The notes: generated by a model not told the origin, from the sequence alone. Counted from the stretch's first letter, positions 14,774 to 39,190 are shown. The stretch: DNA of 64,000 nt from Syntrophales bacterium (GCA_035448805.1 DAOTJR010000009.1:4090-68089); one strand, 5' to 3'. A program made the numbers and translations.

Positions 14774-15331
14774 TCAGGTTGTGGAATTGATAAAATGTAT
14801 CCCCTTGAAGATATAGTTCAAACCCGAAGCAATGGTCAAGACAGATGTAAGGATGTATAATCCCATCAATAATCCTTTATATTCCTCAGCCATCGCCAGG
14901 GTATGCACAAGCAGCACGCTGAAAATCGTCAATAATTGAAATACCGTGGTCAATTTACTGATCATCGTGGGGCGGATCTGAAACGAAATGGACATGATGG
15001 CCAGCATCGCAATCCCGATAAGGATGATGCAGTCCCTGCTCACCACGATAACACTCAACCAGCCGGGAATGACATGCTTGATGGAAAGGGTTACGAAGCA
15101 GCTCACCATGAGGGCCTTGTCGGCGATCGGGTCCAGATAGGCCCCGAGTTCGGTCTGCTGATCGAGGACCCGGGCCAGAAAACCGTCCAGGCCGTCGGTT
15201 ATCCCGGACAGAGCGAAAAGAACCAGGGCTTTGAGGAAATCACCCTGCATGAGGAGGATGACGATCACCGGCACCATGATTATCCGCAAAACCGTCAGGG
15301 TGTTGGGAATGTTGACCCTTCCTGCTTCCAT
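14774..15331 (-). CDS. pgsA: CDP-diacylglycerol-glycerol-3-phosphate 3-phosphatidyltransferase (CDP-alcohol phosphatidyltransferase family)
   Basis: DGFLARVLDQQTELGAYLDPIADK matches the DG-x2-AR-x8-G-x3-D-x3-D motif. The ATG at 15331-15329 overlaps the TGA of the upstream FecR-domain gene (ATGA). The track start at 15370 is probably too long. Confidence 0.85.
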   Translation of the reverse strand: MEAGRVNIPNTLTVLRIIMVPVIVILLMQGDFLKALVLFALSGITDGLDGFLARVLDQQTELGAYLDPIADKALMVSCFVTLSIKHVIPGWLSVIVVSRDCIILIGIAMLAIMSISFQIRPTMISKLTTVFQLLTIFSVLLVHTLAMAEEYKGLLMGLYILTSVLTIASGLNYIFKGIHFINSTT

Positions 15332-16092
15332 CAAAACGCCCTGTCCCTGTCCTTGTTCCAGTCCACCCAATCATCGCGGTCTTCCGCTTCGGAAAACTCC
15401 CGGGGCCGGTCGGCGGAGCCGTCCGCGCGAATGGCGATCTGCTGCATGGAGCGGATAATAACGGTCCATTCTTCCCGGGTGACCTTGCGGGGGCCGGCGA
15501 TCTTCTGCGGACCGGCGACTTTGGTGGGGGGTCCGAGCGCCGTCGCGGCCGCCCGTGATGCAGGCACTCCCGTAACGGCGACTTCACCTTCATATACCCG
15601 TACCAGCGCCGAGGCGTCGGGATTGACGTTCATCCGGTAAACGGTCCCCCGCACTCCCGTGACGGCGTTGTTGCTGGCGATTTCGAATTTTCTGCCCATG
15701 CCCGCCATCTTGCTCACCTTTGCCCAAGCCCTGCCCACGGCGAGATGTATCTTGACGTCCGCATCCCCACCGGCCCCCCCGGCGGCAACGAGGTGCAAAC
15801 GGGTATCTTCGGCAAAACGGAGTCGGGAACGGTCCGCAAGGGTGATCTCCAGACGCGACTTGCGCCCCACGTAAATGTCGTCGCCGGCCTTGAGGGCCGC
15901 CTGCTCTTTGAGAACCCACCAGGTCTGTTTACCACCGGGAAGAACCTGCGCCTCGCCCTCGAGATAAGTGACTACCGCCTCCCCCTTGCCTACCTGAACG
16001 TTGTAGAGACGCTTCGCCAGGACACCCTCCGGAGTGATCCAGACGGCCAGAATGATGGAGAACAGTAAAAAGGTCGGTATTCGCTTCATCAA
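15331..16092 (-). CDS. FecR-domain protein, secreted
   Basis: 253 aa. Signal peptide MMKRIPTFLLFSIILAVWITPEGVLA. FecR-like beta core GEAQVLPGG...AALKAGDDIYVGRKSRLEITLADRSRLRFAEDTRLHL. Confidence 0.7.
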   Translation of the reverse strand: MMKRIPTFLLFSIILAVWITPEGVLAKRLYNVQVGKGEAVVTYLEGEAQVLPGGKQTWWVLKEQAALKAGDDIYVGRKSRLEITLADRSRLRFAEDTRLHLVAAGGAGGDADVKIHLAVGRAWAKVSKMAGMGRKFEIASNNAVTGVRGTVYRMNVNPDASALVRVYEGEVAVTGVPASRAAATALGPPTKVAGPQKIAGPRKVTREEWTVIIRSMQQIAIRADGSADRPREFSEAEDRDDWVDWNKDRDRAF

Positions 16093-16105
16093 TCACCTCC
16101 GCCCG

Positions 16106-16741
16106 TCATCCGTCCGGTCCCAGGGGAAGGGTCTCCATGGCCTTGGCCAGGATCTCCTCCATGGCCGGCTCGAAGACTTGGCAACTCTTCATGCGCAGAC
16201 GTTCCCTGGTGATATCTAAATTCCTTTCTCGAATGGAATACTTGGTTTTCCATAAGCTCTCGTTGGTTTTGGCGCTCCGCAAATCGAAGGTCGCCGTCAC
16301 CGAGGTGGTGGCATAGAGCATGACAAAGTTGGTTTCGCACTCCTGGAGGGTCACGTAAAGGACCGCATCCACACCCAAAAGTTCACCGACACGCCGGGGC
16401 GGTACATTGTCCGGTGCCGGTTGCCGATAACCGTCGAAGCTGGAGGAGATTCTTTCGTCAATGACGTTCAGTGGTATTTTGGGATAGCCGCGGAAATAGA
16501 TCGCTTCCAGCACCTTGCCCCGAAACAGCGCCGACGCTTCCGCATTTTTTGATTGATTCGCCACGGGCAAAACGGCAATCAGCCTTACCGCGCGCTTTTC
16601 ATACTCCGGTGCCAGGAAATGGGGGATTTTTTTCGCGCAGCCCGCCAGCATACAGACCAAAACGATCATGATGAACAGGCGGTAGCGAACATCTTCTCTG
16701 TGTCCCGTATTTACCATGTCCCGCCTTCCCCGGCCCGACAT
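16106..16741 (-). CDS. DUF799-like lipoprotein
   Basis: Lipobox MLAGC. The pattern RLIAVLPVANQS...FRGYPKIPLNVIDE...GVDAVLYVTLQ...LRSAKTNESLW matches the DUF799 family layout as I remember it. The start could be the internal Met at 16717. Confidence 0.6.
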   Translation of the reverse strand: MSGRGRRDMVNTGHREDVRYRLFIMIVLVCMLAGCAKKIPHFLAPEYEKRAVRLIAVLPVANQSKNAEASALFRGKVLEAIYFRGYPKIPLNVIDERISSSFDGYRQPAPDNVPPRRVGELLGVDAVLYVTLQECETNFVMLYATTSVTATFDLRSAKTNESLWKTKYSIRERNLDITRERLRMKSCQVFEPAMEEILAKAMETLPLGPDG

Positions 16742-16853
16742 ATGAAAAATATCGGCAAGTAGATGATTATTTTCATGTTTCGCTCTAAACGACCGCAGGC
16801 ATAGGGGTTCGTAGTACCCGCATACAGGCCTCGGGGTTCTCTGGCGGCAAACC
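16742..16853. repeat. Dispersed intergenic repeat, copy A (full length)
   Basis: ATGAAAAATATCGGCAAGTAGATGATTATTTTCATGTTTCGCTCTAAAC...GGGGTT...GGGGTTCTCTGGCGGCAAACC. It shares ordered blocks with 51608-51686, and its left half matches 48452-48492. Confidence 0.7.
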
Positions 16854-16894
16854 TTCAGAAGGGAATCCTTTTTTGATGGGGATAAGGAGGACCG

Positions 16895-17173
16895 TCATTG
16901 TTTGAGCTTCTCGATCTCCTCCCGGATGATACGTTCCGCAAGGGACGGAAACATCTCCCGGACCAGCCTTTCCGTCGTTTCCTCGACCTTCCTGATCATC
17001 TCTTCCTGAATATTGGGATTTACCAGCGCAATTTTAGGTTTCCGCTCCGGCAGGTCGCTGAAATCCGGCATCCCTTCTTCAACGACATCGACCAGATCGA
17101 AGATCTTTTCTCCCGGCCCCATGACCCGTTCACCCATCTTGCCGCCTCCCGTGCTTTTGGTCTCTGCTACCAT
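16895..17173 (-). CDS. Small acidic hypothetical protein
   Basis: 92-aa ORF between rsmI and the DUF799 gene. The better RBS (GGGAGG) precedes the internal ATG at 17137 (MGERVMGPGEKIFDLVDVVEEG...). I recognise no family. Confidence 0.45.
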   Translation of the reverse strand: MVAETKSTGGGKMGERVMGPGEKIFDLVDVVEEGMPDFSDLPERKPKIALVNPNIQEEMIRKVEETTERLVREMFPSLAERIIREEIEKLKQ

Positions 17174-18343: not shown

Positions 18344-19291
18344 ATGAAATTGAAACGTATCCTCATCACCGGCGGTGCGGGGTTCCTCGGCTCTCATCTC
18401 TGCGACCGGCTCCTGGCCGAGGGTCATGACGTCCTCTGCCTGGACAATCTCTTTACCGGCAACAAGAACAATATCCGGCACCTGCTCGGCCATCCGAATT
18501 TCGAATTCATCCGCCACGACATCACCCAGCCCATCTTTCTGGAAGTGGACGAGATCTACAATCTCGCCTGCCCCGCTTCGCCGGTCCATTACCAGTACAA
18601 CCCCATCAAGACCATCAAGACCAGCGTCATGGGGGCGATCAATACCCTCGGACTGGCCAAAAGGGTGAAGGCCCGGATCCTCCAGGCGTCCACCTCGGAA
18701 GTCTACGGCGATCCGGAGATCCATCCCCAGCGGGAGGATTATTGGGGCCGGGTCAATCCCATCGGTATCCGCAGTTGCTATGACGAGGGGAAGCGGGCCG
18801 CCGAATGTCTCATGATGGACTACCACCGCCAGAACGGGGTACGGATAAAGATAGTCAGGATATTCAATACTTACGGACCACGTATGGCCATCGACGACGG
18901 ACGGGTGGTAAGCAACTTCATCGTCCAGGCCCTGCGGGGCGAGGACATCACCGTCTATGGCGACGGCGCTCAGACCCGTTCCTTCTGCTATTGCGACGAC
19001 CTCATCGAAGGCATCATCAGAATGATGGCCACACCGGACGAAACCATCGGACCGGTGAATTTGGGCAACCCCTCCGAATTTACCATCCTGGAATTGGCCG
19101 AAAACATCATCCGCCTTACCGGTTCGTCTTCCCGTATCGTCTTTAGGCCCTTGCCCCAGGACGACCCCACCCAGCGACGGCCCGATATATCCGTCGCCGG
19201 CTCCCTGCTGTCCTGGCAACCCCGGGTGCCCCTGGCGGAAGGGCTTGCCAAAACCATCGCCTATTTCCGGAAAGTGTTGAACCGCGAATGA
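18344..19291 (+). CDS. UDP-glucuronate decarboxylase (UDP-xylose synthase-like SDR)
   Basis: 315 aa. [43 protein letters not shown] and YDEGKR catalytic region. Very close to UXS-type enzymes. Confidence 0.9.
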
Positions 19292-20481
19292 ATGTTGCTG
19301 CAGACCTGACGTTCGATGTAGTGATTATCGGCGGGGGTGTGGTGGGCCTCGCCCTGGCCCGGCAACTGGCCCGCCGGGACAGAAAGCTGGCGGTGCTGGA
19401 AAAGAACGACCGCTGCGGCCAGGAGACAAGCTCCCGGAACAGCGAGGTAATCCATGCCGGCATCTACTACCCCCGGGATTTTCTGAAGAGCCGCTTATGC
19501 GTGGAAGGAAACCGGCGCCTTTACGAATGGTGCCGCGACCGGAACATACCGCATGCCCGGATCGGCAAGCTCATCGTCGCGTCCGACACCGAGGAAGAGG
19601 CGGCGCTGCCGGCCATCAAGAACGGAGCGGAGCAAAACAACGTAACGGATCTGGAAATCATCGCCCCGGCGCGGCTCCGCAACCTGGAGCCGGCAGTAAC
19701 GGCCCGGGCCGCTGTTTTTTCCCCCTCGACGGGCATCGTGGACAGCCACCGCCTCATGCTGTCGCTGCGCGCCGACGCGGAAGCCCGGGGGGCAATCGTT
19801 TCCTGTCGCGCCTGCGTCACGGCCATTCACCACGCCAGCCCCGGATACGACCTGGAGATAAACAACGGCGCTTACCGCCTCCACACGAAAGCCCTGATCA
19901 ACAGCGCCGGACTTCATGCCGACACCGTTGCCGGGCTGGCCGGCATCGACATCGACGCGGCGGGATACCGTCTGCGGCCCTGCAAGGGCAACTATTTCTC
20001 CGCTTCTCCCTCCCCGGCGCTGCGCCATCTGGTTTATCCCGTGCCGATGAAAAACAACGTCGGGCTGGGTATTCACGCCACCCTGGATCTGGCAGGCCGG
20101 GTCCGTTTCGGGCCGGACAGCCGTTACCTGGAGGCGGAGGAGACGAGAATTCTCAAAAGATGGGGGTACAGGACGGACGATCCGGAAACGTCTCCGGGCA
20201 GGCTCTACGCCGTTGACGAAGGCCGGCGGGAGGCCTTTGCCGCCGCCGTCGCCAGATACCTGCCGGGAATGGCCGCGGCTTCTTTCGTCCCGGAGATGAG
20301 CGGTATCCGCCCCAAACTTCAGGGACCAGGCGAACCGGCAGCGGATTTCATCATCCGGGAGGAGGGCGACCGGGGCATGCCCGGCTTCATCAACCTCATC
20401 GGCATCGAGTCTCCGGGACTGACGGCCTGTCTGGCCATCGCCGTTTATGTGGCAAAAAAATATTTCCATGAGGGAGAGTAA
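19288..20481 (+). CDS. FAD-dependent oxidoreductase (L-2-hydroxyglutarate oxidase/DAO-like)
   Basis: 397 aa. Dinucleotide fold [19 protein letters not shown]...[22 protein letters not shown] overlap with the UXS stop. Confidence 0.75.
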
Positions 20482-25544: not shown

Positions 25545-25832
25545 TCATTCAGAGGATTTCGTTTCGCCGGTGGCTTCGCTTTTTCCTGTTTCGGCTGCCG
25601 CCGTCCCGGTGGTGTTTGTTTCCTCGTGCTTTGCCTCGCTCCGCGGTGCCTTCACTCCTCCGTAATCGGTCACATACCAACCGCTTCCCTTGAGGTGAAA
25701 AGAGGATAGAGACATGAGTTTGGTCACCGGCCCCTTGCAGAACCGGCAAGTCTTGACGGCGGGATCGGTGATTTTCTGAAACAATTCAAAGTCCTTTCCA
25801 CATTTCCGGCATTTGTATTCATAAATTGGCAT
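25545..25832 (-). CDS. FmdB-family zinc-ribbon protein
   Basis: [39 protein letters not shown] is the canonical CxxC...CxxC FmdB N-terminus. The C-terminal tail is low-complexity and acidic/Thr-rich. Confidence 0.85.
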
Positions 25833-25854: not shown

Positions 25855-26382
25855 TTACGTACACAGGTCGTTTAGCTGATACCGGTTGCTGAAACAGTCC
25901 AGCACGAGTTGCAACTCCGGCCGCAGGCACGATTGGAGCAGGTCACGGGTAATCGCGTGAACCTTGTCCTCCTCCCGGCGTTGTTCCTGCCGGGACAGAT
26001 CGAAGGCAACCTCCCCGTTTTCGAATCTGAGGACATGGACCAGTTCATGGACAGCGATATACAGCAGCAACGGGCTCAACTTGATAAAAGAATGGGCCCG
26101 GTCCACGGCATCGAGGATCCGGTCGTCCTGGAGACAGATCCGGTAAAAATGAAAACCCCGCTCCTGCCCCGCTTCCTCTTTCCGGTAATGATACTTGCAG
26201 AGGTGGGCGAAGGCCTCTTTTCTAACCTCATGATCATCGAGAAAGGCCAGGGTCTTGACGTCGTAGGGGTGCGCCCGGACCTTTTCCGGGGATAGACGGA
26301 AATGCCGGCTCATCAACCCCTCGGCCTGTTGAAAGGAGGAATGTGCCAGCGATATCTGTTCGGGATTGAAATACCGGCCCAT
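25855..26382 (-). CDS. Hypothetical protein with HExxH motif
   Basis: 175 aa. [20 protein letters not shown] is a possible Zn-metallopeptidase-type motif. I recognise no other family signature. Confidence 0.55.
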
Positions 26383-26576: not shown

Positions 26577-28061
26577 CTATTTTGTCGGCACCGGCACGGA
26601 AGTGAGGAGATACTTCAGGTCCTCGTCCTCGAAGCGCAGGGATATGCCCACATAAGGGGAACTGTTTCCCTGGTTGCTGATAAAATCATCCCAGCCGGCA
26701 TTGAGGTAGATGTTCTTCAGGAGGCGAAGTTCACCCCCCGCCTTGAGATGGGCCTTCCGGTCCGTAGAAAAATCGAAGGCCTCGAAGGTGAGACGCAGCC
26801 GGTCCTGAAAGGAGAGAAAATCCGCCCCCACCCCGCCGGTGGATTCGAAGATCCCGCCCCGGACGACGAAATCCTTAAAGCGCTTACCCAGTTGCGCATT
26901 GAAGAGGAGACCGCTCCGGTCCCATTCCGTAATGGTGGTCGTCGTTCCCCCCTGGGTGATGTCTTTGACCGTCCGGCGTCCCCGGGGATCCGCCGCCAGG
27001 CCGAGGAGATAGAAGTAATCCTGACGGGGCTGGATACGCAAGTCGAGATAACTTTTCGCGTCGCTCTTGTCGATCAGATACTCCCCCCGGTAGCCTATAA
27101 ATGTTCTGAACTGCTCGCTTTTATTTACGAATTTATTTATTCCCCCCAGGGTTTGATTGAGGTTTTTCACCGTCTCGTCGTCGTTGACAAGTTTGCCGAT
27201 CGTCCCCTGGCCTTTGTTTATCTTGTCGGATACCTCCTGGAGGCTGGCCATGGTCTTATTCAGGCGCGCCGCCATCTCCCGGTCTCGGACGAGTTGTCCC
27301 ACCGTCCCCTCGCCCCGCTGGATGCCGGCGGTAATGTCGCTCAGGGAGGCAAAGGTCTTCTCCATCTGGCTTGTCGCCGCCCGCAGGCTTTCGATGACCT
27401 GGGCGATCTTTTCGTCGTTCCGGACGACCACCCGGTTCAGATTGCCCGTCAACTGCCGGGTGTTTTCCAACATGGCCCGGAGGGTGGCCTCGTTGTTCAC
27501 GACAACGGCGTTCAGATTCCTGGTCAAAAGGCGGGTATTCTCCAGGATGGCCCCCATGGATTCTTCTCCGGCCTTTCCTCCCATGACCTTGCTCAACGCG
27601 CCCGTAACCCCCTTGACGTCTTCGGCGATGGCGGCCAGTTGATTGAGGAGTTTATCCACATCGGCCTGGCGTTCCACCCGGGTGATACTCTCCCCCGCCT
27701 GGAGGAGCGCCGTCCCCTGGGTACCCGGCAGCAATTCGATATATTTGTCGCCGAGAATCCCGTGGGTCTTGATCGCGGCCGTGACGTCCTTTTCGAGCTT
27801 CACCTCCCCGGGGAGGCGGATACTCACCACGGCCCGGCCGTTCTTGAGGCGGATCGTTTCCACCCGTCCCACCTCCACGCCGGCGATCTGCACGGAGGCG
27901 CCGTTGGTCAGTCCCGCGGCGTTGTCGAACTCAACCTCCACCAGATAGCCCCGTTTGAAGGTAAAACCCCGCTGGCCGACCTGAAAGGACATATACCCGA
28001 GGACGATCAGACCGATGAGGACGAAAAGGCCGACCTTGGCCTCGGAGCTGATTTTGTTCAT
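26577..28061 (-). CDS. mlaD: MlaD/MCE-family protein with long helical and C-terminal beta-rich extension
   Basis: AAGGAGG lies 9 nt before the ATG at 28061. TM helix VGLFVLIGLIVLGYMSF and MCE core VEFDNAAGLTNGASVQIAGVEVGRVETI. This is followed by repeated LN..VV.N helical segments and a C-terminal region of about 185 aa with an alternating pattern. Confidence 0.85.
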   Translation of the reverse strand: MNKISSEAKVGLFVLIGLIVLGYMSFQVGQRGFTFKRGYLVEVEFDNAAGLTNGASVQIAGVEVGRVETIRLKNGRAVVSIRLPGEVKLEKDVTAAIKTHGILGDKYIELLPGTQGTALLQAGESITRVERQADVDKLLNQLAAIAEDVKGVTGALSKVMGGKAGEESMGAILENTRLLTRNLNAVVVNNEATLRAMLENTRQLTGNLNRVVVRNDEKIAQVIESLRAATSQMEKTFASLSDITAGIQRGEGTVGQLVRDREMAARLNKTMASLQEVSDKINKGQGTIGKLVNDDETVKNLNQTLGGINKFVNKSEQFRTFIGYRGEYLIDKSDAKSYLDLRIQPRQDYFYLLGLAADPRGRRTVKDITQGGTTTTITEWDRSGLLFNAQLGKRFKDFVVRGGIFESTGGVGADFLSFQDRLRLTFEAFDFSTDRKAHLKAGGELRLLKNIYLNAGWDDFISNQGNSSPYVGISLRFEDEDLKYLLTSVPVPTK

Positions 28062-28078: not shown

Positions 28079-28825
28079 TCACATAACCCGGATCGGGCCC
28101 TCGATACTCCCGGCGAGAAACTGGCGGATCACGGGGTCCCGGGATGCCTGGATCTCCTCCGGCGTGCCGTGGGCGATAATAACGCCTTCATAAAGCATGG
28201 CGATCTTGTGGCCGATCCGGAAGATGGACTGAAGATCGTGACTGATGACCACACAGGTCAACTGGAAATTCTTCTGGGTCGCCACGATCAACTGGTTGAC
28301 GGCCTCCGTCATGACGGGATCGAGACCCGTCGTCGGCTCGTCGAAGAGGACGATCCGGGGATGGAGGGCGATGGCCCGGGCCAGACCGACCCTTTTTCTC
28401 ATCCCTCCGCTCAACTCGGCCGGCATCTTTTCCTCCACCCCCGGCAGGCCGACCGCCCGCAAGCGGTCCGTCACGATCCCGCGGATCTCCGTCTCTTTAA
28501 GTCGGGCGTGTTCCCGGAGGGGGAAGGCCACGTTTTCCCCGACCGTCATGGAATCGAAAAGGGCGGCCTCTTGAAACAGCATTCCGAACTTCTTTCTGAT
28601 TTCGTTGAGTTCCCGGTCGTTGAGGCGGGTTATATCCACACCGTCCACCAGGACCCGGCCCCGGTCGGGCTTCATGAGCCCGATGATGTGTTTGAGCAGG
28701 ACGCTTTTCCCGCCGCCGCTGCGCCCGATGATCACCGTGGTCATGCCGTCCTCGATGGTGAGGTTCAAACCGGCCAGGACCTGATTTTTCCCGAAGGATT
28801 TGTGAAGGTCTATCAGTTCGATCAT
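28079..28825 (-). CDS. mlaF: ABC transporter ATP-binding protein, MlaF type
   Basis: Starts at MIELIDLHKSFG (28825). Walker A GRSGGGKS, signature LSGGMRKRVGLARA, Walker B IVLFDEPTTGLDP. The arginine-rich extension of the track ORF up to 28966 overlaps mlaE and is rejected. Confidence 0.9.
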   Translation of the reverse strand: MIELIDLHKSFGKNQVLAGLNLTIEDGMTTVIIGRSGGGKSVLLKHIIGLMKPDRGRVLVDGVDITRLNDRELNEIRKKFGMLFQEAALFDSMTVGENVAFPLREHARLKETEIRGIVTDRLRAVGLPGVEEKMPAELSGGMRKRVGLARAIALHPRIVLFDEPTTGLDPVMTEAVNQLIVATQKNFQLTCVVISHDLQSIFRIGHKIAMLYEGVIIAHGTPEEIQASRDPVIRQFLAGSIEGPIRVM

Positions 28826-28839
28826 CGTCCCGGGATGCC

Positions 28840-29619
28840 TCAAAACATGAGCGCCGTCAAAAAATAATCGCTGATCAGGATGGTGATGGAGGCCAGCACC
28901 ACCGCCTCCGTCGTGGCCCGTCCCACGCCTTCCGCGCCGCCGGTGGTGTTGAACCCTTTGTAGCAACCAACCAGGGAGAGGATCAGGCCGAAGCAGGCCG
29001 CCTTGATCAATCCGTTAAATATATCGCTTAGTTCGACTAATTTGGTGATATTCTTCATGAAGACCCCGGCGTTGATGTTCAGGAGTTCCACACCGACGAA
29101 ATAGCCCCCCAGGATCCCGACAAAGTCGCTGACAATGGTCAGAAAGGGGACCATGACGACGCCGGCGATGATCCGGGGCACAATGAGGTACTGCACGGGA
29201 TTGGCGGCCATGACATAGAGGGCGTCCACCTGCTCCGTAACCTTCATGGTGCCGATCTCCGCCGCCATGGCCGAGCCGGCCCGGGCCGTCACCATGAGGG
29301 AGGTGAGGACGGGGCCCAGCTCTCTGGTCATTCCCAGGGCCACCGTGGCCCCCACCATGCTCTCGGCGCTGAACATCCGGAAGCCGTGATACCCCTGGAG
29401 GGCCATGACCATGCCGGTGAACATCCCCGTGAGCACCACCACGAAGATGGAACGGACGCCGACGAACTCCATCTGCTTGAAGATGTTGCGGAGGCGGAGC
29501 GGCGGCCGGAACATCCATCCCATAACGGAGAAGAACAGGAGGATGATCCTCCCCATTTCCTCGACGGAACGGAGTACGGCGCGCCCCAACGCGTCGATTA
29601 ACGAAGTCAGGCCACCCAT
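28840..29619 (-). CDS. mlaE: ABC transporter permease, MlaE type
   Basis: 259 aa, multi-TM. GATVALGMTRELGPVLTSLMVTARAGSAMAAEIGTMKVTEQVDAL is the conserved MlaE block. Confidence 0.9.
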   Translation of the reverse strand: MGGLTSLIDALGRAVLRSVEEMGRIILLFFSVMGWMFRPPLRLRNIFKQMEFVGVRSIFVVVLTGMFTGMVMALQGYHGFRMFSAESMVGATVALGMTRELGPVLTSLMVTARAGSAMAAEIGTMKVTEQVDALYVMAANPVQYLIVPRIIAGVVMVPFLTIVSDFVGILGGYFVGVELLNINAGVFMKNITKLVELSDIFNGLIKAACFGLILSLVGCYKGFNTTGGAEGVGRATTEAVVLASITILISDYFLTALMF

Positions 29620-30690
29620 TTACAGCGGGCCTCTTTTCGCTCCATGGGCCCGCAGCGCCGCGTCGATGATCCGGCTGATCAGCCCGGTCTGGGTGATCCC
29701 CGCCGCGGCCGCCTGATGAAACAACACCGTGGAGGGGGTCATGCCGGGCAGGGTGTTGGGCTCGAGGACCGCCACCCGTCCGTCAGGGCGGACAAACATG
29801 TCGATCCGGGCATAGCCCTTGAGATCCAGGGCAACAAAGGCCTCCCGGGCCGTCTCCTGGATTCTCGTCAAGATTTCCCCGGGGAGGCGGGCGGGGGTCT
29901 TGTTCTCCCCCTGACCGTACAAAAACTTGTCCTCCAGGGAGAGGATTTCGGCGGTGGGGATCGTCTCCGAGGGGGTTAAGGCGCAGGGGGGATCACCATC
30001 CAGGACACCGCAGGTAACCTCCGTCCCGGTGAGAAACTCCTCCACCAGGGCCACATTGTCCCATTCCAGAGCGGCAGTCACCGCGGCAGCCACCCCCTCC
30101 CGGGACACCACCTTCTTGACGGCGGTGCTGCACCCCTCCCGGGTGGGTTTGACGATACAGGGGAACCCGATCTCGGCCGTCACCCGGTCCAGCAGCTCCG
30201 CTCGTGCCGCGCTCTCCCAGGCCCGCCGGGATACCGGAACGGTAGCGGGAACATCGATCCCGTTCATGGCGAAGATCCGTCGGCAGACATATTTGTCCAT
30301 CCCCAGGGCGGAGGCCAGGACACCCGAGCCCGTGTAAGGGATGCCCAAAAGTTCGAGAAGGCCCTGGATACAACCGTCTTCCCCATATTTACCATGGAGG
30401 CCAAGGCAGACGACATCGGTCTTTTCCTTGAGAGATTCATACGGCAGCCGTTGCGCCTCCCCTTCGAGATCCTCCTCGATATCCCTGGTGCTGTTCCGCA
30501 TGAGGAGCTTCAGGGGAATCTCCCAGAGCCGGGCTTGAGAATCCATGAAAACAGCCAGGGGGATGAATCGTTGCCGATCCATCTTGCTGAAGATGTTACG
30601 GCCGCTTTCCAGAGACACCTCCTTTTCCGAAGACATCCCTCCCATGATCACCGCCACCCTCAGTTTTTCCGTTGCCGTTGTCTCTGCCAT
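29620..30690 (-). CDS. D-alanine-D-alanine ligase family protein, divergent paralogue (Cys/Phe at DdlB Ser150/Tyr216 positions)
   Basis: ATP-grasp Ddl layout: GGMSSEKEVSL, HGKYGEDGCIQGLLELLGIPYTGSG, VKPTREGCSTAV, LEDKFLY, ARIDMF, LEPNTLPGMT. The ATG at 30690 is preferred over the GTG at 30705. The TAA at 29622-29620 is followed directly by the mlaE ATG. Confidence 0.8.
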   Translation of the reverse strand: MAETTATEKLRVAVIMGGMSSEKEVSLESGRNIFSKMDRQRFIPLAVFMDSQARLWEIPLKLLMRNSTRDIEEDLEGEAQRLPYESLKEKTDVVCLGLHGKYGEDGCIQGLLELLGIPYTGSGVLASALGMDKYVCRRIFAMNGIDVPATVPVSRRAWESAARAELLDRVTAEIGFPCIVKPTREGCSTAVKKVVSREGVAAAVTAALEWDNVALVEEFLTGTEVTCGVLDGDPPCALTPSETIPTAEILSLEDKFLYGQGENKTPARLPGEILTRIQETAREAFVALDLKGYARIDMFVRPDGRVAVLEPNTLPGMTPSTVLFHQAAAAGITQTGLISRIIDAALRAHGAKRGPL

Positions 30691-30820
30691 GTAACGTCCC
30701 TTCACTCCTTGTTATATTTCGTCAAAAAAGTACCGGCGGCGGCGCCTCTCCCGTGGCGCTTCCCTGCCCCCGGCTATCCCTCGTATTCATTACCTTCTGT
30801 CCCGCACCGCTTTGTTCCCT

Positions 30821-31876
30821 TCACAGCGGCCCCTTCTTTTCCCGGTGAATGGCCAGGGCATTCTCGATGAGGGTCGTGATGATCATCGACGGCAGCATCC
30901 CGGCACTGGCCGCCTGCTCGAAAAAAAACGAGGAGGGGGCCATCCCGGAGGAGGAATTAGGATCGGTGATCAAGATCCGACCGTCGGGAAGATAAAAACC
31001 ATCGATACGCCCATAGGATCTGAAGCCGAGCACCTCGAAGGCCCGCCGGGCTTCATCCTTGATCCTGGCCGCCGTTTCCGGGGGGATGTTCTTCGGCGGC
31101 GTGAATTTCCGGCACCGGCCGGGCATGTACTTGTCATCGTAGGTGTAGAAGTCGCTCTGGGGATAGATCTCCGTGAGATCGAGGGGCGTGATTTCGCCGT
31201 CCCGCTCCAGAATGATCGCGGAAAACTCGATACCCGCCAGAAACTCCTCCACCAGTGCCAGCCGGTCCCATCGGAAGGCCTCGTCGAGGACCCCCTCGAT
31301 ATCCGTCGCCGCCCGGATCTTGCCCACCCCCACGCTCGATCCCTCCCGTACCGGCTTGACGAAAAAGGGAAGGGCGAAACGACCGAGCAGCTTCTCCACC
31401 ACCAGCTCCGGCGTCCGGCGCCATTCCTCCTCCCGGACGATCATGCTTGCGGGGACGGCGATTCCCGCCGCCGCCAACACCTGCTGCTGGATATGCTTAT
31501 CCATCCCCAAGGCGGAAGCGAGAACCCCGGGCCCCGTATAGGGGATACGGAGGAGTTCGAGGAGCCCCTGGATACATCCGTCGTCGCCGTATTTTCCGTG
31601 GAGGGAGATAAAGGCGAAGTCGATCCTCTCCGGCAGCTCCTCATACGCAATCCGCCGGGCCTCTCCGGAAAGCCTTTCCGAGATGTCTACGGTGGTGTTC
31701 TGGGAAACGAGCTGCCAGGGTATCTCCCAGAGACCGCCCTGCCCGTCCATAAACATGGGTACCCCCTGGAAGTACTCCGGATCGAGATTGTCATAGACGT
31801 TCCGGCCACTGTTTAGGGACACCTCCCGTTCCGACGACATACCCCCGAAAATGATTCCCACCCTCAATTTCTGCAT
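30821..31876 (-). CDS. ddl: D-alanine-D-alanine ligase family protein (Ser/Tyr retained)
   Basis: GGMSSEREVSL, HGKYGDDGCIQGLLELLRIPYTGPG, VKPVREGSSVGV, YDDKYM, GRIDGF, TDPNSSSGMA. GAGGAGG lies upstream of the ATG at 31876. The track start at 31897 is a TTG. Confidence 0.8.
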   Translation of the reverse strand: MQKLRVGIIFGGMSSEREVSLNSGRNVYDNLDPEYFQGVPMFMDGQGGLWEIPWQLVSQNTTVDISERLSGEARRIAYEELPERIDFAFISLHGKYGDDGCIQGLLELLRIPYTGPGVLASALGMDKHIQQQVLAAAGIAVPASMIVREEEWRRTPELVVEKLLGRFALPFFVKPVREGSSVGVGKIRAATDIEGVLDEAFRWDRLALVEEFLAGIEFSAIILERDGEITPLDLTEIYPQSDFYTYDDKYMPGRCRKFTPPKNIPPETAARIKDEARRAFEVLGFRSYGRIDGFYLPDGRILITDPNSSSGMAPSSFFFEQAASAGMLPSMIITTLIENALAIHREKKGPL

Positions 31877-31906
31877 CTGAACACGGATCCTCCTCAAGAA
31901 TTTTCC

Positions 31907-33865
31907 CTATGAATCCCAGATAAAAGTCACGCCGCTGTTCGGAAAGATCCAGGTATGATCCGGAACCCGCAGCCGGATGAATCTGCCCTTTTCTCGTGTC
32001 ACCTCGGGATAAGGCTGCTTGCCGGCGAAAAAACTCACCTCCCGGACATGCCGGAAGCCCGTCTGCTCATAATTGAAGGTAATATCGAGCCCCCGGGTCG
32101 GATAGACGATATACACGGAGAAGATATTGTTCGCCCTCGATTTCTTGGTAAATATTTCTATGGCGATCTCGACCTCCGTATCGAGTTTTCGCCCCAGGCC
32201 GCCGGAGCTGCACCATACTTCATAGCCCCGGGAGGTCATCGCCGTGCGGACGATGGGGACGTCCTCGCCGTCCACCGTCACCCGGGCCACCCGAAAGTCC
32301 CTCTCCATGACCAGATCCTCGCCTCTGGTCATCAACCAGCGGTATTCGCACCGCGGGTCCTCGAAAAACGCCGCCAACTGTTCTTCATCGAAGGCGCAGC
32401 CGATGAGAAAATTGTCATTTTTCAATGTCTTACGATAGGCAACCCGGGTGGTGACATCCAGGCTGCCATCTCGTCTTCCGGCAGGCGTACCGTCTGTCCC
32501 CGCCGCTTCGGCAACGCCGATATCATAACGGAAGTCTTCCCGCAACTCCAACCGGCGGTCTTCCTTCCCAAAGAGGGTTTCGAACATCTCGTAGTAGATG
32601 GCGTTCCCCAGTTCTTCGCTCCGGGCCCGGGCCTGGAAACACTGACGGATGATGCTGTCGATCCGATCTATAGAGCGCTCCTCACCGGGGATATAGATCC
32701 GCCGGAGGCGGGGCAGAACGCTGTCCGCCTTCCCCTTGTGCAGAAACAGCCGCGGCGCCCGTTTCCCCAGGGCGCAGAGGATCTCGTAGCTGATACTTCC
32801 CACCCGCCCGGCGATCTCGTTGGCGGAGATGGACTCCTGTCCCTGACGCCCCATGAGGACCACCTCGTCCCCCACACGGCAGTCGGGAATCGTGCTTACA
32901 TCAACCGTACACATATCCATGGAAACCCGTCCGACAACCGGCACACGCTTTCCCCGGATCAGCACTTCCCCCTGATTGGAGAGGATGACACCATAGCCGT
33001 CGCCGTAACCGACAGGAATAGTGGCGATACGGGTCGGTTTCGTGGTCGTGTAGGTGCGGTTGTAACCGATGCTGTACCCCTTGGGAAAATCCTTCAGCAA
33101 CACGATGCGCGTCTTGAAGGACATCACCGGCAAGAGGTCCGCCTTGTCCTTCGTCGCCGGAGAGGGATAGATGCCGTAAGACATGAGGCCCGGACGGACC
33201 ATGTCCAGATTGAACCCGGGGTAGTTCAGGATGGCCCCGCTGTTCGACATGTGCCGGATGGGAATACGGATGCCTTCGTCGGCGAGTTTCGCCAGGAGGC
33301 GGTGAAAAAGCTCGGCCTGGGACTCGTTGTAATCCGAACGGGTTTCACTGGCGGCCAGATGGGTGAAAATTCCTTCCACGATCAGGTCGGGAAGGGCCAG
33401 GATGTCCCTGATGGTCTGAAAGGCTTCATAATAAAGTGTCCCCCCTCTCCCCATCCCCGTATCCACTTCGATATGCACGGGGAGACGGATACGGGCCTGG
33501 GCACACCTCTCCTGCAGGCTCCGGGCAAAGGGGAGGTCGGAGACGGAGGGGATGAGATTGTATTTGATGATCTCGCCGATTTCCCCTTCCGGCGACGGGC
33601 TCAGGATCACGATGGGGGACGTGAGACCGCTGACCCGGAGCTGCACCCCTTCATCGGCATTGGCGACGCCCAGATAGACGGCGCCGTTCTTCAGGGCCGC
33701 CTCGGCGATCTCGATCGCCCCGTGCCCGTAAGCGTCGGCCTTCACTACCTGGAGGATCTTGACTCCCGGCCGAACCAGACGTTTGAGCTCCTTCCAGTTG
33801 CGGGCAAAATGGTCGAGATCGACCTCAACCCAGCTGCGGTATTTATGAACTTCCTGATCGGACAT
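31907..33865 (-). CDS. Alanine racemase fused to a C-terminal domain of about 277 aa with unknown function
   Basis: Residues 1-375 are a complete PLP alanine racemase (VVKADAYGHGA PLP-Lys, HIEVDTGMGRGG, PVGYGDGY, ISYEILCALGKRAPR). Residues 376-652 (31910-32740) match no family I recognise. Confidence 0.85.
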   Translation of the reverse strand: MSDQEVHKYRSWVEVDLDHFARNWKELKRLVRPGVKILQVVKADAYGHGAIEIAEAALKNGAVYLGVANADEGVQLRVSGLTSPIVILSPSPEGEIGEIIKYNLIPSVSDLPFARSLQERCAQARIRLPVHIEVDTGMGRGGTLYYEAFQTIRDILALPDLIVEGIFTHLAASETRSDYNESQAELFHRLLAKLADEGIRIPIRHMSNSGAILNYPGFNLDMVRPGLMSYGIYPSPATKDKADLLPVMSFKTRIVLLKDFPKGYSIGYNRTYTTTKPTRIATIPVGYGDGYGVILSNQGEVLIRGKRVPVVGRVSMDMCTVDVSTIPDCRVGDEVVLMGRQGQESISANEIAGRVGSISYEILCALGKRAPRLFLHKGKADSVLPRLRRIYIPGEERSIDRIDSIIRQCFQARARSEELGNAIYYEMFETLFGKEDRRLELREDFRYDIGVAEAAGTDGTPAGRRDGSLDVTTRVAYRKTLKNDNFLIGCAFDEEQLAAFFEDPRCEYRWLMTRGEDLVMERDFRVARVTVDGEDVPIVRTAMTSRGYEVWCSSGGLGRKLDTEVEIAIEIFTKKSRANNIFSVYIVYPTRGLDITFNYEQTGFRHVREVSFFAGKQPYPEVTREKGRFIRLRVPDHTWIFPNSGVTFIWDS

Positions 33866-36317: not shown

Positions 36318-36393
36318 GCCGATGTAGCTCAGCCGGCAGAGCAGCTGATTCGTAATCAGCAGGTCGGCGGTTCGATCCCGCCCATCGGCTCCA
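36318..36393 (+). tRNA. tRNA-Thr (anticodon CGT), CCA encoded
   Basis: GCCGATGTAGCTCAGCCGGCAGAGCAGCTGATTCGTAATCAGCAGGTCGGCGGTTCGATCCCGCCCATCGGCTCCA. Acceptor GCCGATG/CATCGGC, anticodon stem GCTGA/TCAGC with loop TTCGTAA, T arm GGCGG-TTCGATC-CCGCC. Confidence 0.92.
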
Positions 36394-36928: not shown

Positions 36929-39190
36929 TCATTTGGAGTCCATGATCCATACCCCGTCCCAGCCTTCCTGAGGGGGGTTCTTCTTCAGCAGTTCGCAACG
37001 ATCAATATACATGCGGCATATTTCATCGGCGGGGTTCTTTCCCAGGGCCTTCCGGAAAGAAGTGATCGCCCCCTCCCATTGCTGCCGCCGGTAACTCTGC
37101 AACCCCTCCTGGAAATGGTTTACCGACTCCATGAGATTGGGGAAACTTTCGGCGCTATGGTAATCGAGGACTTCGAAAACCCCCACCGGTTCCGTCTTGC
37201 CCTTGACCACCACGCTGTCCACCTGCCTGATCCGGTAGGTTCCCCGGAGGCGCTTGTAGGTATTTTCGCTGATGAGGATTTGGGCATGGTAGCGCTTGCA
37301 GAGGCTTTCCAGACGTGACGCCAGATTGACACCGTCACCGATCAGGGTGTAGTCCATCCGTTTTGGCGAACCGATGTTACCGGAAACGATCACATCGGTA
37401 TTCAATCCCAAACCCATCTTCACCGGCCGCTTGCCCTGGGAAACCCTTTCCCGGTTCCAGTTCTCCAGGGCGTTGATCATGGCGATGGCCGCCCGGACCG
37501 CCCGGTCCTCGTCGTCGTCGTGGGCCATGGGGATCCCGAAGGCCGCCATGATGGCGTCACCGATGAATTTGTCGAGCATACCCCCTTCCTTCTGGATACA
37601 CTCCACCATGATGGTGAAATACTCGTTCAGGAGGGATACCGTCCCCTGGGCGCCAAGTTCTTCGGTAAGGGTGGTGAACTGGCGGATGTCGGAGAAGAGG
37701 ATCGTCGCCATGGTACTCTTCCCGCCCAGGATATCTTCTCCCCCCTCGAGAAGCTGATCGGCCAATCCCGGATCCATGTATCTGGACATTGTTGATTTCA
37801 CTCGTTTTTCCGAGCTGATGTCGTCGATGATGATCATGACACCCAGTTTTTTCTTCTCGACGCTCGTCAAAGGCATTATAGTGATGTTGGCCGCCACTTT
37901 GTTCGCCTCGAACGCCAGTTCCGCATCCATGGCCAGCTCCGGTTTTCTCGTGTCCACCACCCGGTTGATCTTTTCTACCACCCAGGCGTTATGTCCCGTG
38001 AAAAATTCCGCCACCGGCCGTTCCAGGATGGCCTCCGCCTCGACTTGCATGATCCGGAGACCCGCGGCGTTGCAGGTGACGATCCTACCCTCCTCGTTGA
38101 GGGTGATGACGCCGTTGGACATGCTTTCCAGCATGCTCTCACTGTAATTCTTCATGTTCTGGATGTCGTCGAAGAGCTTGGCGTTTTCCAGGGCGATGGA
38201 CACCTGGGCGGTAAAGGCCCGCAGTCGGGATTCGTCCTCCCTGGTGAACGTCCCTCCCCGTTTGTTGAGCACCTGGGTCACCCCGATAAGCTTGCCGGCC
38301 TTGTTAATCACGGGAACGCAGAGGATCGAGCGTGTAAAGAAACCCGTCTTGCGATCGAAAGCGGGATTGAAGCGGAGATCGGCATAGGCATAAGGAATGT
38401 TTATCGTTTCTCCGGACTGGAAGACGGCGCCGGCAATCCCCAGGTGATTGGGCAGGCGGATCTCCATCGCCCCGAGACCTTCCCACACCTTGGAAAACAA
38501 TTCCTTGTGTTTTTCGTCGTTGAGGAAAAGGGTCGACCGCTCGGCGTTGAGCATCCGCGTCGCCTCCGACATGACCTTCTGGAGCAGGCTGCCCAGGTCG
38601 ATCTCCGCCGTGACATTGGATACGAGATCGAAGAATTCCATCTCTTTGGCGCGGAATTTCTGCATCTTTTCCACAACCCCGATGCTCTGGAGGGTGATGG
38701 CCGCCTGGGTCGTCATCGATTCGAGCAGTTGCATATCCTCCCGACTGAAGCGACCCCGCTTCTTGTTGAGCATCTGGGCGGCACCGATGACCTCCCCCTT
38801 CATCGTCCGGATGGGGACACAGAGGATGCTCTTCGTGACATAACCGGTCTTCTCGTCCACGGAACGGTTGAAGCGGGAATCGGCATAGGCATCGTAAACG
38901 ATCAGGCTTTCCCCGGTTGTAAAGACATGGCCGGCAATACCGGTGTTGTTGATGATTCGTATTTCCCGCTGAAAGTTTCCCTGAGCCACTCGGGAGTAAA
39001 GCTCTCCGGTTTCCGGATCGTTCAGGAAGATGGTTCCCCGGTCCGCCCGGATTTCCCTGGTGGTGATTTCCACCAGGACGCTGAGCATCTCGTCCAGGGT
39101 TTCATAACTCGCCATCGTCCGGGCGACGTTGAGAAGCAGCTCCGCCTGGTGAAGACGGATCTCCTTATTTATTGCCGAATCTTGTTTCAT
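36929..39190 (-). CDS. GAF-GAF-PAS class III adenylate/guanylate cyclase
   Basis: 753 aa. Two GAF domains (RGTIFLNDPETGELYS..., RSTLFLNDEKHKELFS...), a PAS-like segment, a cyclase domain (ILFSDIRQFTTLTE...GDAIMAAFGIP...GLNTDVIVSGNIGS) and the same C-terminal tail type as the CHASE2 cyclase. Confidence 0.85.
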   Translation of the reverse strand: MKQDSAINKEIRLHQAELLLNVARTMASYETLDEMLSVLVEITTREIRADRGTIFLNDPETGELYSRVAQGNFQREIRIINNTGIAGHVFTTGESLIVYDAYADSRFNRSVDEKTGYVTKSILCVPIRTMKGEVIGAAQMLNKKRGRFSREDMQLLESMTTQAAITLQSIGVVEKMQKFRAKEMEFFDLVSNVTAEIDLGSLLQKVMSEATRMLNAERSTLFLNDEKHKELFSKVWEGLGAMEIRLPNHLGIAGAVFQSGETINIPYAYADLRFNPAFDRKTGFFTRSILCVPVINKAGKLIGVTQVLNKRGGTFTREDESRLRAFTAQVSIALENAKLFDDIQNMKNYSESMLESMSNGVITLNEEGRIVTCNAAGLRIMQVEAEAILERPVAEFFTGHNAWVVEKINRVVDTRKPELAMDAELAFEANKVAANITIMPLTSVEKKKLGVMIIIDDISSEKRVKSTMSRYMDPGLADQLLEGGEDILGGKSTMATILFSDIRQFTTLTEELGAQGTVSLLNEYFTIMVECIQKEGGMLDKFIGDAIMAAFGIPMAHDDDEDRAVRAAIAMINALENWNRERVSQGKRPVKMGLGLNTDVIVSGNIGSPKRMDYTLIGDGVNLASRLESLCKRYHAQILISENTYKRLRGTYRIRQVDSVVVKGKTEPVGVFEVLDYHSAESFPNLMESVNHFQEGLQSYRRQQWEGAITSFRKALGKNPADEICRMYIDRCELLKKNPPQEGWDGVWIMDSK

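Follow-up and report, generated by a model that had tools for sequence, protein, structure and literature searches.

In the D-alanine--D-alanine (D-Ala-D-Ala) ligases, or Ddl, the equivalents of Y210, Y216, R255, G276, S281 and L282 (E. coli DdlB numbering, used throughout unless a protein's own numbering is given) contact D-Ala-D-Ala, and the equivalent of E270 binds Mg and phosphate (PMC6899670). In lactic acid bacteria, Phe versus Tyr at the 216 position sets depsipeptide versus dipeptide synthesis, as the substitutions F261Y (Leuconostoc) and F258Y (L. reuteri) show (PMC5996685). Among racemases, the position of Tyr354 of Bacillus stearothermophilus Alr (BsAlr) is occupied by Asn in VanT (PMC4542195). 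Here we describe a locus of a Syntrophales metagenome-assembled genome (MAG) that joins a racemase to two ligases of this kind. On the minus strand of the 64-kb window (the whole stretch of DNA analyzed, 64,000 nucleotides, in which all positions are counted), three co-oriented, consecutive open reading frames (ORFs) occupy positions 29620-33865 and encode a long alanine racemase (AlrL) and two Ddl paralogues (Ddl1 and Ddl2); the ORFs and the Pfam and NCBIfam matches agree exactly with the layout given by the original prediction, which was made from the sequence alone.

That prediction took the three genes for a stand-alone module making a D-amino-acid dipeptide or depsipeptide, rather than for the housekeeping ddl. 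Half of this idea survives, as the paralogues have diverged at different catalytic and substrate positions, Ddl2 combining the change of Tyr216 to Phe with four more changes in its pocket. The stand-alone, non-housekeeping half is not supported: the locus belongs to the core chromosome, AlrL is found order-wide, in Smithella-like genomes a DdlA lies near AlrL or the neighboring gene c0, and van, nonribosomal peptide synthetase (NRPS), tailoring and export genes are absent from the window. With moderate confidence, we regard the locus instead as the Syntrophaceae/Syntrophus-type housekeeping D-Ala branch of peptidoglycan precursor synthesis, duplicated and diverged, in which Ddl2 has probably altered its substrate use, and not as an accessory module.

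Divergence of Ddl1 and Ddl2

Both proteins have the two domains of the ligase family, with E-values of 2.1e-26 for PF01820 (Dala_Dala_lig_N) and 8.7e-42 for PF07478 (Dala_Dala_lig_C) in Ddl1, and 6.9e-26 and 7.1e-46, respectively, in Ddl2. They fall within the D-alanine--D-alanine ligase family by TIGR01205 (253.3 bits for Ddl1 and 261.5 for Ddl2, cut-off 245.65) and NF002528 (266.6 and 279.6 bits, cut-off 262), in each case only just above the general cut-off, and none of the equivalog-level Ddl models reaches its cut-off for either protein. The NCBIfam models for Van ligases score far below theirs, the best being VanG (192-200 versus 495), with D_ala_D_lac at 167-178 versus 550.

The two ligases are ~45-46% identical to each other (45% over 353 residues, E 2e-110) and 28-35% identical to all reference Ddl and Van ligases. 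The shared motifs that had been quoted as signs of common ancestry are present in the translations, as are the ...GPL ends. In a neighbor-joining tree, which holds few references and leaves out lactic-acid-bacterial sequences, the orthologues of Ddl1 and those of Ddl2 form reciprocally monophyletic sister groups; the phylogeny that had been proposed as a check thus sets them apart, as a pair of their own, from DdlA (E. coli and Smithella), DdlB and VanA/B/N. Tree and identities identify Ddl1 and Ddl2 as sister products of a lineage-specific duplication. By the Nei-Gojobori method, against six relatives, dN/dS is 0.08-0.11 for Ddl1, Ddl2 and the C-terminal extension of AlrL, here called AlrC (~0.10, ~0.10 and ~0.09, respectively), and 0.05-0.07 for the racemase domain of AlrL, values that mark Ddl1, Ddl2 and AlrC as functional and under purifying selection.

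The divergence of the two ligases is most evident in their active sites. The alignment comprised 60 Ddl1 and 42 Ddl2 orthologues from the loci together with E. coli DdlA and DdlB; also aligned were 120 database homologues of Ddl2 and 120 Smithella DdlA sequences, these being the best listed, down to ~70-74% identity (the Ddl2 of L031, at 69%, lies outside). Ddl1 keeps E15, S150, K215, Y216, R255, D257, N272 and S281, has Tyr or Phe at 210 and is changed to D270 and F282 (60/60). Ddl2 keeps E15, K215, R255, D257, E270 and N272 and is changed to C150, L210, F216, T281 and V282 in 162/162 sequences (42/42 from the loci and 120/120 from the database). Smithella DdlA is changed at none of these positions, with S150, Y210, Y216, E270, S281 and M282 in 120/120 (M282 in 119/120), while VanA, VanB and VanN keep S150 and have R282. 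In the proteins' own numbering, the altered residues are D305 (position 270) and F317 (position 282) of Ddl1, and C187 (S150), L250 (Y210), F256 (Y216), T321 (S281) and V322 (L282) of Ddl2, in which K255 precedes F256. The claim that the ligases differ from each other at different catalytic motifs is therefore borne out, and the differences are fixed across orthologues.

The set of residues for ATP, Mg2+ and catalysis (K97, K144, E180, E187, K215, R255, D257, E270, N272 and G276) is complete in Ddl2, 42/42 and 120/120. Ddl1 has all of it but E270, which is Asp in 60/60, a conservative change of an Mg and phosphate ligand. The canonical substrate set (the E15-S150-Y216 triad, Y210, S281 and L/M282) is largely present in Ddl1 and is not that of Ddl2. 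Ser150 occurs in every aligned reference, including EcDdlA, EcDdlB, the 120 Smithella DdlA and VanA/B/N, and Ddl2 alone has Cys. Reference Van ligases differ from canonical Ddls at positions 210, 216 and 282. The Phe that follows the catalytic Lys in the omega-loop of lactic-acid-bacterial ligases of the depsipeptide type is found in all 162 Ddl2 sequences, whereas Ddl1 has Lys-Tyr. The unusual states are the non-aromatic Leu210 and the Cys150 of Ddl2 and the Asp270 of Ddl1.

The locus across the Syntrophales

AlrL forms at least 120 database clusters at >=65% identity, all of ~650 aa, and those with names are from Syntrophales, Syntrophus or Syntrophaceae. A scan with the AlrC alignment of one genome per GTDB species found relatives in at least 276 genomes; the best 80 of the 276 loci are labelled Syntrophales, Syntrophus, Smithella, Syntrophaceae or unclassified deltaproteobacterial/proteobacterial MAGs. 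The gene order of these loci was compared by counting informative species loci only, with the absence of a gene judged within 10 kb of each locus. A gene for a CHASE2 cyclase lies directly upstream of AlrL in 50/55 loci and Ddl1 directly downstream in 55/70; Ddl2 follows Ddl1 in 39/46. Conservation of the order alr-ddl-ddl-mlaEFD was another check that had been proposed; for the transporter end of this order, mlaE is within 400 nt of Ddl2 in 17/38 loci. The general frame is CHASE2-AlrL-[Ddl1-(omp)-Ddl2]-[mlaEFD]-c0, then a Zn-ribbon gene. The optional member is a gene for an outer-membrane protein (OMP)-like product which, judged from the size of the Ddl1-Ddl2 gap, separates the two ligase genes in ~15 species; the window is without it. 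In the 12 loci inspected (L016, L017, L021, L022, L023, L031, L038, L040, L045, L068, L080 and L084), it codes for ~255-265 aa with a signal peptide and an end in ...LTVGF/W, a predicted outer-membrane beta-barrel. The inserted gene was considered as a vanH and rejected, the product being a ~260-aa OMP-like protein with a signal peptide and not a dehydrogenase.

The loci split cleanly by AlrL similarity. Smithella-like loci never have Ddl1/Ddl2 after AlrL, and the non-Smithella clades all do, except two: L019/L044 (neither ligase) and a clade of L037, L057, L059, L069 and L071 (Ddl1 only). A canonical DdlA of 367-383 aa is present in five loci of the Smithella clade, no more than ~7 kb from AlrL in four and beside c0 in four. 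In L091, c0(-), DdlA(+) and AlrL(-) are contiguous; in L090, c0 and DdlA are divergent; and in L067, the order is ddlA-mlaE-mlaF-mlaD with c0 adjoining ddlA, so that DdlA and c0 are divergently adjacent in all three. Linkage to mlaEFD recurs both with DdlA and with the Ddl1/Ddl2-type ligases. Because DdlA occupies the AlrL/c0 neighborhood in one clade and Ddl1/Ddl2 in the other, this neighborhood appears to hold "the" ddl order-wide. The sequence within 10 kb of the 60 loci that carry Ddl1 showed no canonical ddl.

Two large assemblies depart from the frame. In a 4.57-Mb Syntrophales chromosome, AlrL stands alone and Ddl2, c0 and the Zn-ribbon gene lie together 177 kb away. In a 4.07-Mb Syntrophales genome (L087), the genes after AlrL-Ddl1 are those for DUF2600 and OppB/OppC-like permeases in the place of Ddl2, which is absent within 10 kb; a Cas12b/C2c1-type gene (1097 aa, L087 3520-6813, minus strand) lies just upstream of its CHASE2 cyclase-AlrL-Ddl1 genes. 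A different candidate ligase pair occurs on the 1.3-Mb Smithellaceae contig L090, at 15067-17096 (minus strand), where tandem ATP-grasp genes (327 and 334 aa) that match Dala_Dala_lig_C only adjoin a GNAT acetyltransferase gene ~6 kb from the canonical DdlA.

The racemase part of AlrL is canonical. Residues 15-373 match Ala_racemase_N (E 1.5e-65) and Ala_racemase_C (E 2.8e-48), the score against the alanine racemase model TIGR00492 is 357 bits (cut-off 168), and the best PDB match is the alanine racemase 4Y2W (E 4e-92). Of its key residues, K42 is the pyridoxal phosphate lysine, Y287 the second catalytic base and Y360, equivalent to BsAlr Tyr354, the tyrosine that governs specificity; the "ISYE" of AlrL aligns with the "INYE" of alanine racemase 4LUY. 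A VanT-like serine racemase was considered and rejected, since AlrL keeps Tyr at the Tyr354 position, has no N-terminal membrane domain and scores below the cut-off of all VanT models (341.6 versus 460 for vanT-G-Cterm).

AlrC had no match in Pfam, NCBIfam, PADLOC or the PDB by sequence and profile searches. In its AlphaFold2 (AF2) model, the means of the predicted local distance difference test (pLDDT) over 10-residue blocks are mostly 76-97 for residues 65-276, except in a loop at 81-89, and a beta-rich fold is confidently predicted for this part. The matches from Foldseek were all weak and pointed to the N-terminal beta domain of M1 aminopeptidases, with template modeling (TM) scores of at most 0.39; a function drawn from this resemblance was rejected, TM scores below 0.4 being too weak. 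AlrC is 59-85% identical across the Syntrophales, and an exhaustive HMMER search found relatives as fusions with Alr in proteins that are more distant (29-40% identity) and come from unrelated metagenome lineages of 31-60% GC. The domain is also C-terminal in proteins of ~350-420 aa with two N-terminal transmembrane helices (2TM); occurrences beyond the window are L096-L175 and P0138, P0140, P0145, P0153 and P0160. At 80 metagenome loci of the distant Alr-fusion group, no ddl was found within 6 kb. The fusion of racemase and AlrC thus predates the ddl duplication, extends beyond it and does not depend on it, and a mechanistic tie between the two was rejected on the same grounds. AlrC might serve the D-Ala branch as a new module for regulation or scaffolding, and the fusion of Alr to a widespread beta-rich domain is an unannotated architecture in an enzyme that is an antibiotic target.

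At the other end of the frame, c0 keeps its HExxH motif (HELVH) in 25/25 orthologues and had no Pfam, NCBIfam or PDB match by sequence and profile searches; its single-sequence AF2 model has a pLDDT of 48. It lies near a ddl in both Syntrophales clades, near DdlA in Smithellaceae and near Ddl2 elsewhere, directly or after mlaEFD. The c0 product may be a small metallopeptidase with a tie to the D-Ala-D-Ala branch.

Coordinates of the locus, its flanking genes and their parts in the 64-kb window are as follows.
Feature	Positions	Strand	Evidence
CHASE2-adenylate/guanylate cyclase-TPR sensor protein, 749 aa	33954..36203	-	Pfam CHASE2 9e-67, Guanylate_cyc 1.8e-30
AlrL, 652 aa, long alanine racemase	31907-33865	-	Pfam, TIGR00492
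AlrL residues 1-376, racemase catalytic domains	32738..33865	-	TIGR00492, PDB 4Y2W
AlrC, 276-residue C-terminal extension of AlrL, predicted beta-rich	31910..32737	-	AF2 model
Ddl1, 351 aa, D-Ala-D-Ala ligase paralogue	30821..31876	-	Pfam, NCBIfam
Ddl1-Ddl2 spacer, 130 nt	30691..30820	-	sequence read
Ddl2, 356 aa, D-Ala-D-Ala ligase paralogue, remodelled substrate pocket	29620..30690	-	Pfam, NCBIfam
mlaE, permease	28840..29619	-	Pfam MlaE PF02405 1.5e-84
mlaF, ABC ATPase, 248 aa as called	28079..28825	-	Pfam ABC_tran PF00005 2.4e-33
mlaD-like MCE protein, 494 aa as called	26577..28061	-	Pfam MlaD PF02470 2e-20
c0, 175-aa hypothetical protein, HELVH (HExxH) motif	25855..26382	-	conserved across orthologues
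Zn_ribbon_8 gene beside c0	25545-25832	-	domain match

The flanks are those originally described, with the CHASE2 cyclase upstream and mlaE-mlaF-mlaD downstream by Pfam; an MlaE permease, an ABC ATPase and an MCE-domain MlaD together make up a Mla (MlaFEDB-type) lipid ABC transporter. The longest ORFs of the ligases are 30821-31897 for Ddl1 (358 aa) and 29620-30705 for Ddl2 (361 aa), and public gene calls in four assemblies place the starts at the ATG codons at 31876 and 30690, respectively. There are 30 nt between the AlrL stop and the Ddl1 start, and no gap between the TAA of Ddl2 and the ATG of mlaE. The Ddl1-Ddl2 spacer holds a weak GC hairpin, then T6, then a GAAGGGA ribosome-binding site; the spacers have no Rfam match, and scans for consensus promoters and terminators gave chance-level results. 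The spacing suggests that the genes may be co-transcribed. The AlrL protein is identical in the Syntrophales MAG GCA_035424505.1 and in metagenome assemblies from ENA and JGI, and four independent assemblies share one gene order.

The CHASE2 cyclase is probably not part of the D-Ala pathway. Its linkage to AlrL has no obvious rationale. The cyclase is one of two tandem class III nucleotidyl cyclase sensors upstream of alr, the other being a GAF-GAF-PAS-cyclase at 36929-39190 (minus strand); between the two cyclase genes, on the opposite strand, is a tRNA gene (36318-36390, plus strand; Rfam 69 bits). The rest of the window contains pheS, pheT, thrS, lon, a plsB-like acyltransferase gene, ptsI, sugar-nucleotide enzymes, sensor kinases and an efflux system. 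Its GC content is flat (0.52-0.64), with no compositional sign of an island, and the locus belongs to the core chromosome and not to an island. Origin from a plasmid or mobile element was rejected, as the best plasmid match is only 38% identical and no Ddl2-like gene was found on plasmids. A flavin adenine dinucleotide (FAD)-dependent oxidoreductase with a D-amino-acid oxidase-like Pfam domain (DAO) is encoded at 19288-20481 (plus strand), inside the sugar-nucleotide cluster and ~10 kb from alr-ddl; it is probably unrelated to D-Ala metabolism.

As the original prediction had remarked, mur and fts neighbors are missing: neither tblastn nor Pfam found a MurC or FtsQ homologue in the window, and tblastn found neither at the related loci L001 and L005-L084, so that the ligase genes are not in the ddlB position of the dcw cluster, from murC/murB to ftsQ. 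This absence is not diagnostic, because E. coli ddlA also sits among unrelated genes. A survey of domains and gene calls found no vanH, vanX, vanT, vanXY, vanRS, murF, NRPS, tailoring or export genes in the window.

Possible roles of the two ligases

If the locus is a duplicated housekeeping D-Ala branch, AlrL would make D-Ala, and an ancestral ddl at the locus would have been duplicated within the lineage, both copies then being kept under strong purifying selection in different fixed active-site states. Ddl1 would be an ordinary D-Ala-D-Ala ligase, because its recognition set for D-Ala1 and D-Ala2 (E15, S150, Y210, K215, Y216, R255 and S281) is complete and its linkage to alr is tight, with an altered Mg site (E270D) and, at 282, the bulkier Phe. 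Ddl2 has lost the Glu-Ser-Tyr hydrogen-bond triad (Cys150, Phe216) and is changed at three residues that border the second-substrate site (Leu210, Thr281 and Val282). Given the lost triad, the three further pocket changes and the Phe switch, Ddl2 may ligate D-Ala to a second substrate different from, or broader than, D-Ala, or may have clearly different kinetics. The leading guess for this substrate is a D-2-hydroxy acid such as D-lactate, by analogy with the Phe-type Ddl of lactic acid bacteria, and the product would supply the envelope together with the Mla lipid-transport genes. The products of both enzymes are deduced here from active-site residues, and Ddl1 and Ddl2 would be the only ddl genes of the genome.

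Several points weigh against this reading. Its "housekeeping" part is argued from the logic of the locus. No vanH-like D-lactate dehydrogenase or vanX-like D,D-dipeptidase is linked to the ligases, and some species have the OMP-like insert instead. The 4.07-Mb genome has only Ddl1 near AlrL, and the 4.57-Mb genome shows Ddl2 alone, at a distance from AlrL; should these genomes really lack the other paralogue, Ddl1 and Ddl2 would be isozymes that can replace each other. Nor is it obvious why a diderm should need precursors insensitive to glycopeptides. Finally, across 588 Ddl representatives, the equivalents of Tyr216 and Tyr210 are only 40-50% identical, with other aromatics found there (PMC6899670), so that Phe216 by itself is weak evidence of depsipeptide synthesis.

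A serious alternative, though one we rate clearly below the favored reading, is that the two proteins are simply isozymes of D-Ala-D-Ala ligase, comparable to the DdlA and DdlB of E. coli. Their substitutions would be compensated or due to neutral drift in a subfamily specific to the lineage, and the copies would differ only in expression (alr- versus mla-linked), kinetics or sensitivity to inhibitor or product. Both proteins score above the general Ddl cut-offs of the hidden Markov models and keep K97, K144, E180, E187, K215, R255, D257, N272 and G276; the two Ddl of E. coli itself share 36% identity; many Ddl tolerate other aromatics at position 216; a D-Lac or D-Ser supply gene is not linked; and the genomes with a single paralogue at the known loci hint at redundancy. 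However, five pocket positions of Ddl2 are changed jointly and invariantly (162/162), including the non-aromatic Leu210 and Cys150, of which 210, 216 and 282 are positions that separate Van ligases from canonical Ddls, and 216 is a documented specificity switch in lactic acid bacteria. The long-term retention of both copies, in 39/46 species with dN/dS ~0.1, also argues for non-identical roles. A narrower proposal, that Ddl2 is a natural alternative-substrate ligase making D-Ala-D-lactate or another D-Ala-D-X, long fixed beside a canonical Ddl1 in a diderm syntrophic clade, is offered tentatively and is the less probable of the two.

Less probable still is a dedicated module whose product, a D-amino-acid dipeptide or depsipeptide, is used outside the normal peptidoglycan stem while the housekeeping ddl, and perhaps alr, lie elsewhere, for example in the dcw cluster. 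The separate clade of the paralogues, 28-35% identical to every reference Ddl and Van ligase, their scores just above the general Ddl cut-offs and the depsipeptide-type Phe of Ddl2 would fit such a module, but an order-wide AlrL that is present even in Smithella-like genomes without linked Ddl1/Ddl2 would not, nor would the canonical DdlA near AlrL and/or beside c0 in that clade. The 60 Ddl1-bearing loci without a canonical ddl within 10 kb, the envelope and core neighbors (mlaEFD, the OMP-like gene and pheST) in place of NRPS, tailoring, export, immunity or van genes, and the absence of an island signal in composition also argue against it, making this explanation improbable. That Ddl1 and Ddl2 form an obligate heterodimer, each an intact half-function (Ddl1 with an impaired Mg site, Ddl2 with an impaired D-Ala1 triad) and one of them maybe a regulatory pseudo-enzyme, is very improbable. 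Ddl enzymes are dimers, and these are sister paralogues with complementary "defects" that are adjacent in most genomes; yet each Ddl active site lies within one subunit, so complementation across subunits is not expected. Both proteins also keep all residues for ATP binding and catalysis, E270D being conservative, the OMP gene separates them in ~15 species, and one chromosome has Ddl2 alone at its locus while another has Ddl1 alone at the AlrL locus.

No paper on Syntrophus ddl or on long racemases was found in the literature, and the paired, reciprocally diverged Ddl subfamilies, the HExxH neighbor and the C-terminal domain of the racemase appear to be undescribed, as variants within well-known enzyme families. 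If Ddl2 does make a D-Ala-D-X product, part of the peptidoglycan precursors of Syntrophaceae, or a different polymer of the envelope, would end in something other than D-Ala-D-Ala, with no van-type operon involved. Use of another second substrate by Ddl2 would mean constitutive, chromosomally fixed alternative stem-peptide termini in a lineage of Gram-negative anaerobes, which would have arisen by duplication of a housekeeping ligase and not through a van operon, and this would matter for the evolution of Ddl specificity and for the question of how glycopeptide-resistance chemistry originated in the environment. The five co-varying pocket residues of Ddl2 are a natural mutagenesis set. If both enzymes are ordinary isozymes, the locus would be the Syntrophales arrangement of housekeeping genes and its interest mainly one of annotation.

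Comparison with known ligase and racemase systems

Among described ligases, the DdlA type of E. coli/Salmonella and Xanthomonas has the same Dala_Dala_lig_N and C architecture, length (~350-365 aa) and ATP-grasp catalytic residues as Ddl1 and Ddl2, and gives their best PDB sequence matches, 3R5F and 3I12 (E 1.5e-54 and 2.2e-51); like E. coli ddlA, the Syntrophales genes are outside the dcw cluster. They differ from this type in being only 28-35% identical to it, in having no counterpart to part of the DdlA N-domain insertion, and in the substitutions E270D and L/M282F of Ddl1 and S150C, Y210L, Y216F, S281T and L/M282V of Ddl2, at positions where the DdlA of Smithellaceae is canonical. With the D-Ala-D-Lac ligases of lactic acid bacteria (Leuconostoc mesenteroides F261, L. 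reuteri F258 and L. plantarum), Ddl2 shares the Phe after the catalytic Lys and a chromosomal gene with no vanH-vanX operon. Unlike them, it is found in a diderm Syntrophales host, has C150, L210, T281 and V282 in addition, and is accompanied by the Tyr-type Ddl1.

The Van ligases (VanA and VanB for D-Ala-D-Lac; VanC, VanE, VanG, VanL and VanN for D-Ala-D-Ser) are likewise ATP-grasp Ddl homologues that differ from the canonical enzymes at 210, 216 and 282, and the D-Ser-type systems also have a linked racemase gene, VanT. However, Ddl1 and Ddl2 form a separate clade; VanA/B/N combine Ser150 with Arg282, whereas Ddl1 has Phe and Ddl2 has Val at 282; vanH, vanX, vanXY and vanRS are missing; and the racemase is of the Alr type, with Tyr where VanT has Asn. 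Other racemases carry an extra domain as AlrL does, namely the MurF-Alr fusion (PRK11930) and the membrane-bound VanT, and strong model scores are confined to the Alr portion. The partner in AlrL differs in being C-terminal, neither MurF nor a VanT membrane domain and of no known family, and it recurs in unrelated lineages and in the 2TM proteins.

A further parallel is the DdlA/DdlB pair of E. coli, where one genome also has two divergent Ddl, at least one of them outside the dcw cluster. The E. coli pair comes from two old subfamilies at separate loci, whereas Ddl1 and Ddl2 are by their phylogeny lineage-specific duplicates, usually in tandem behind alr, that carry reciprocal, fixed changes in their active sites.

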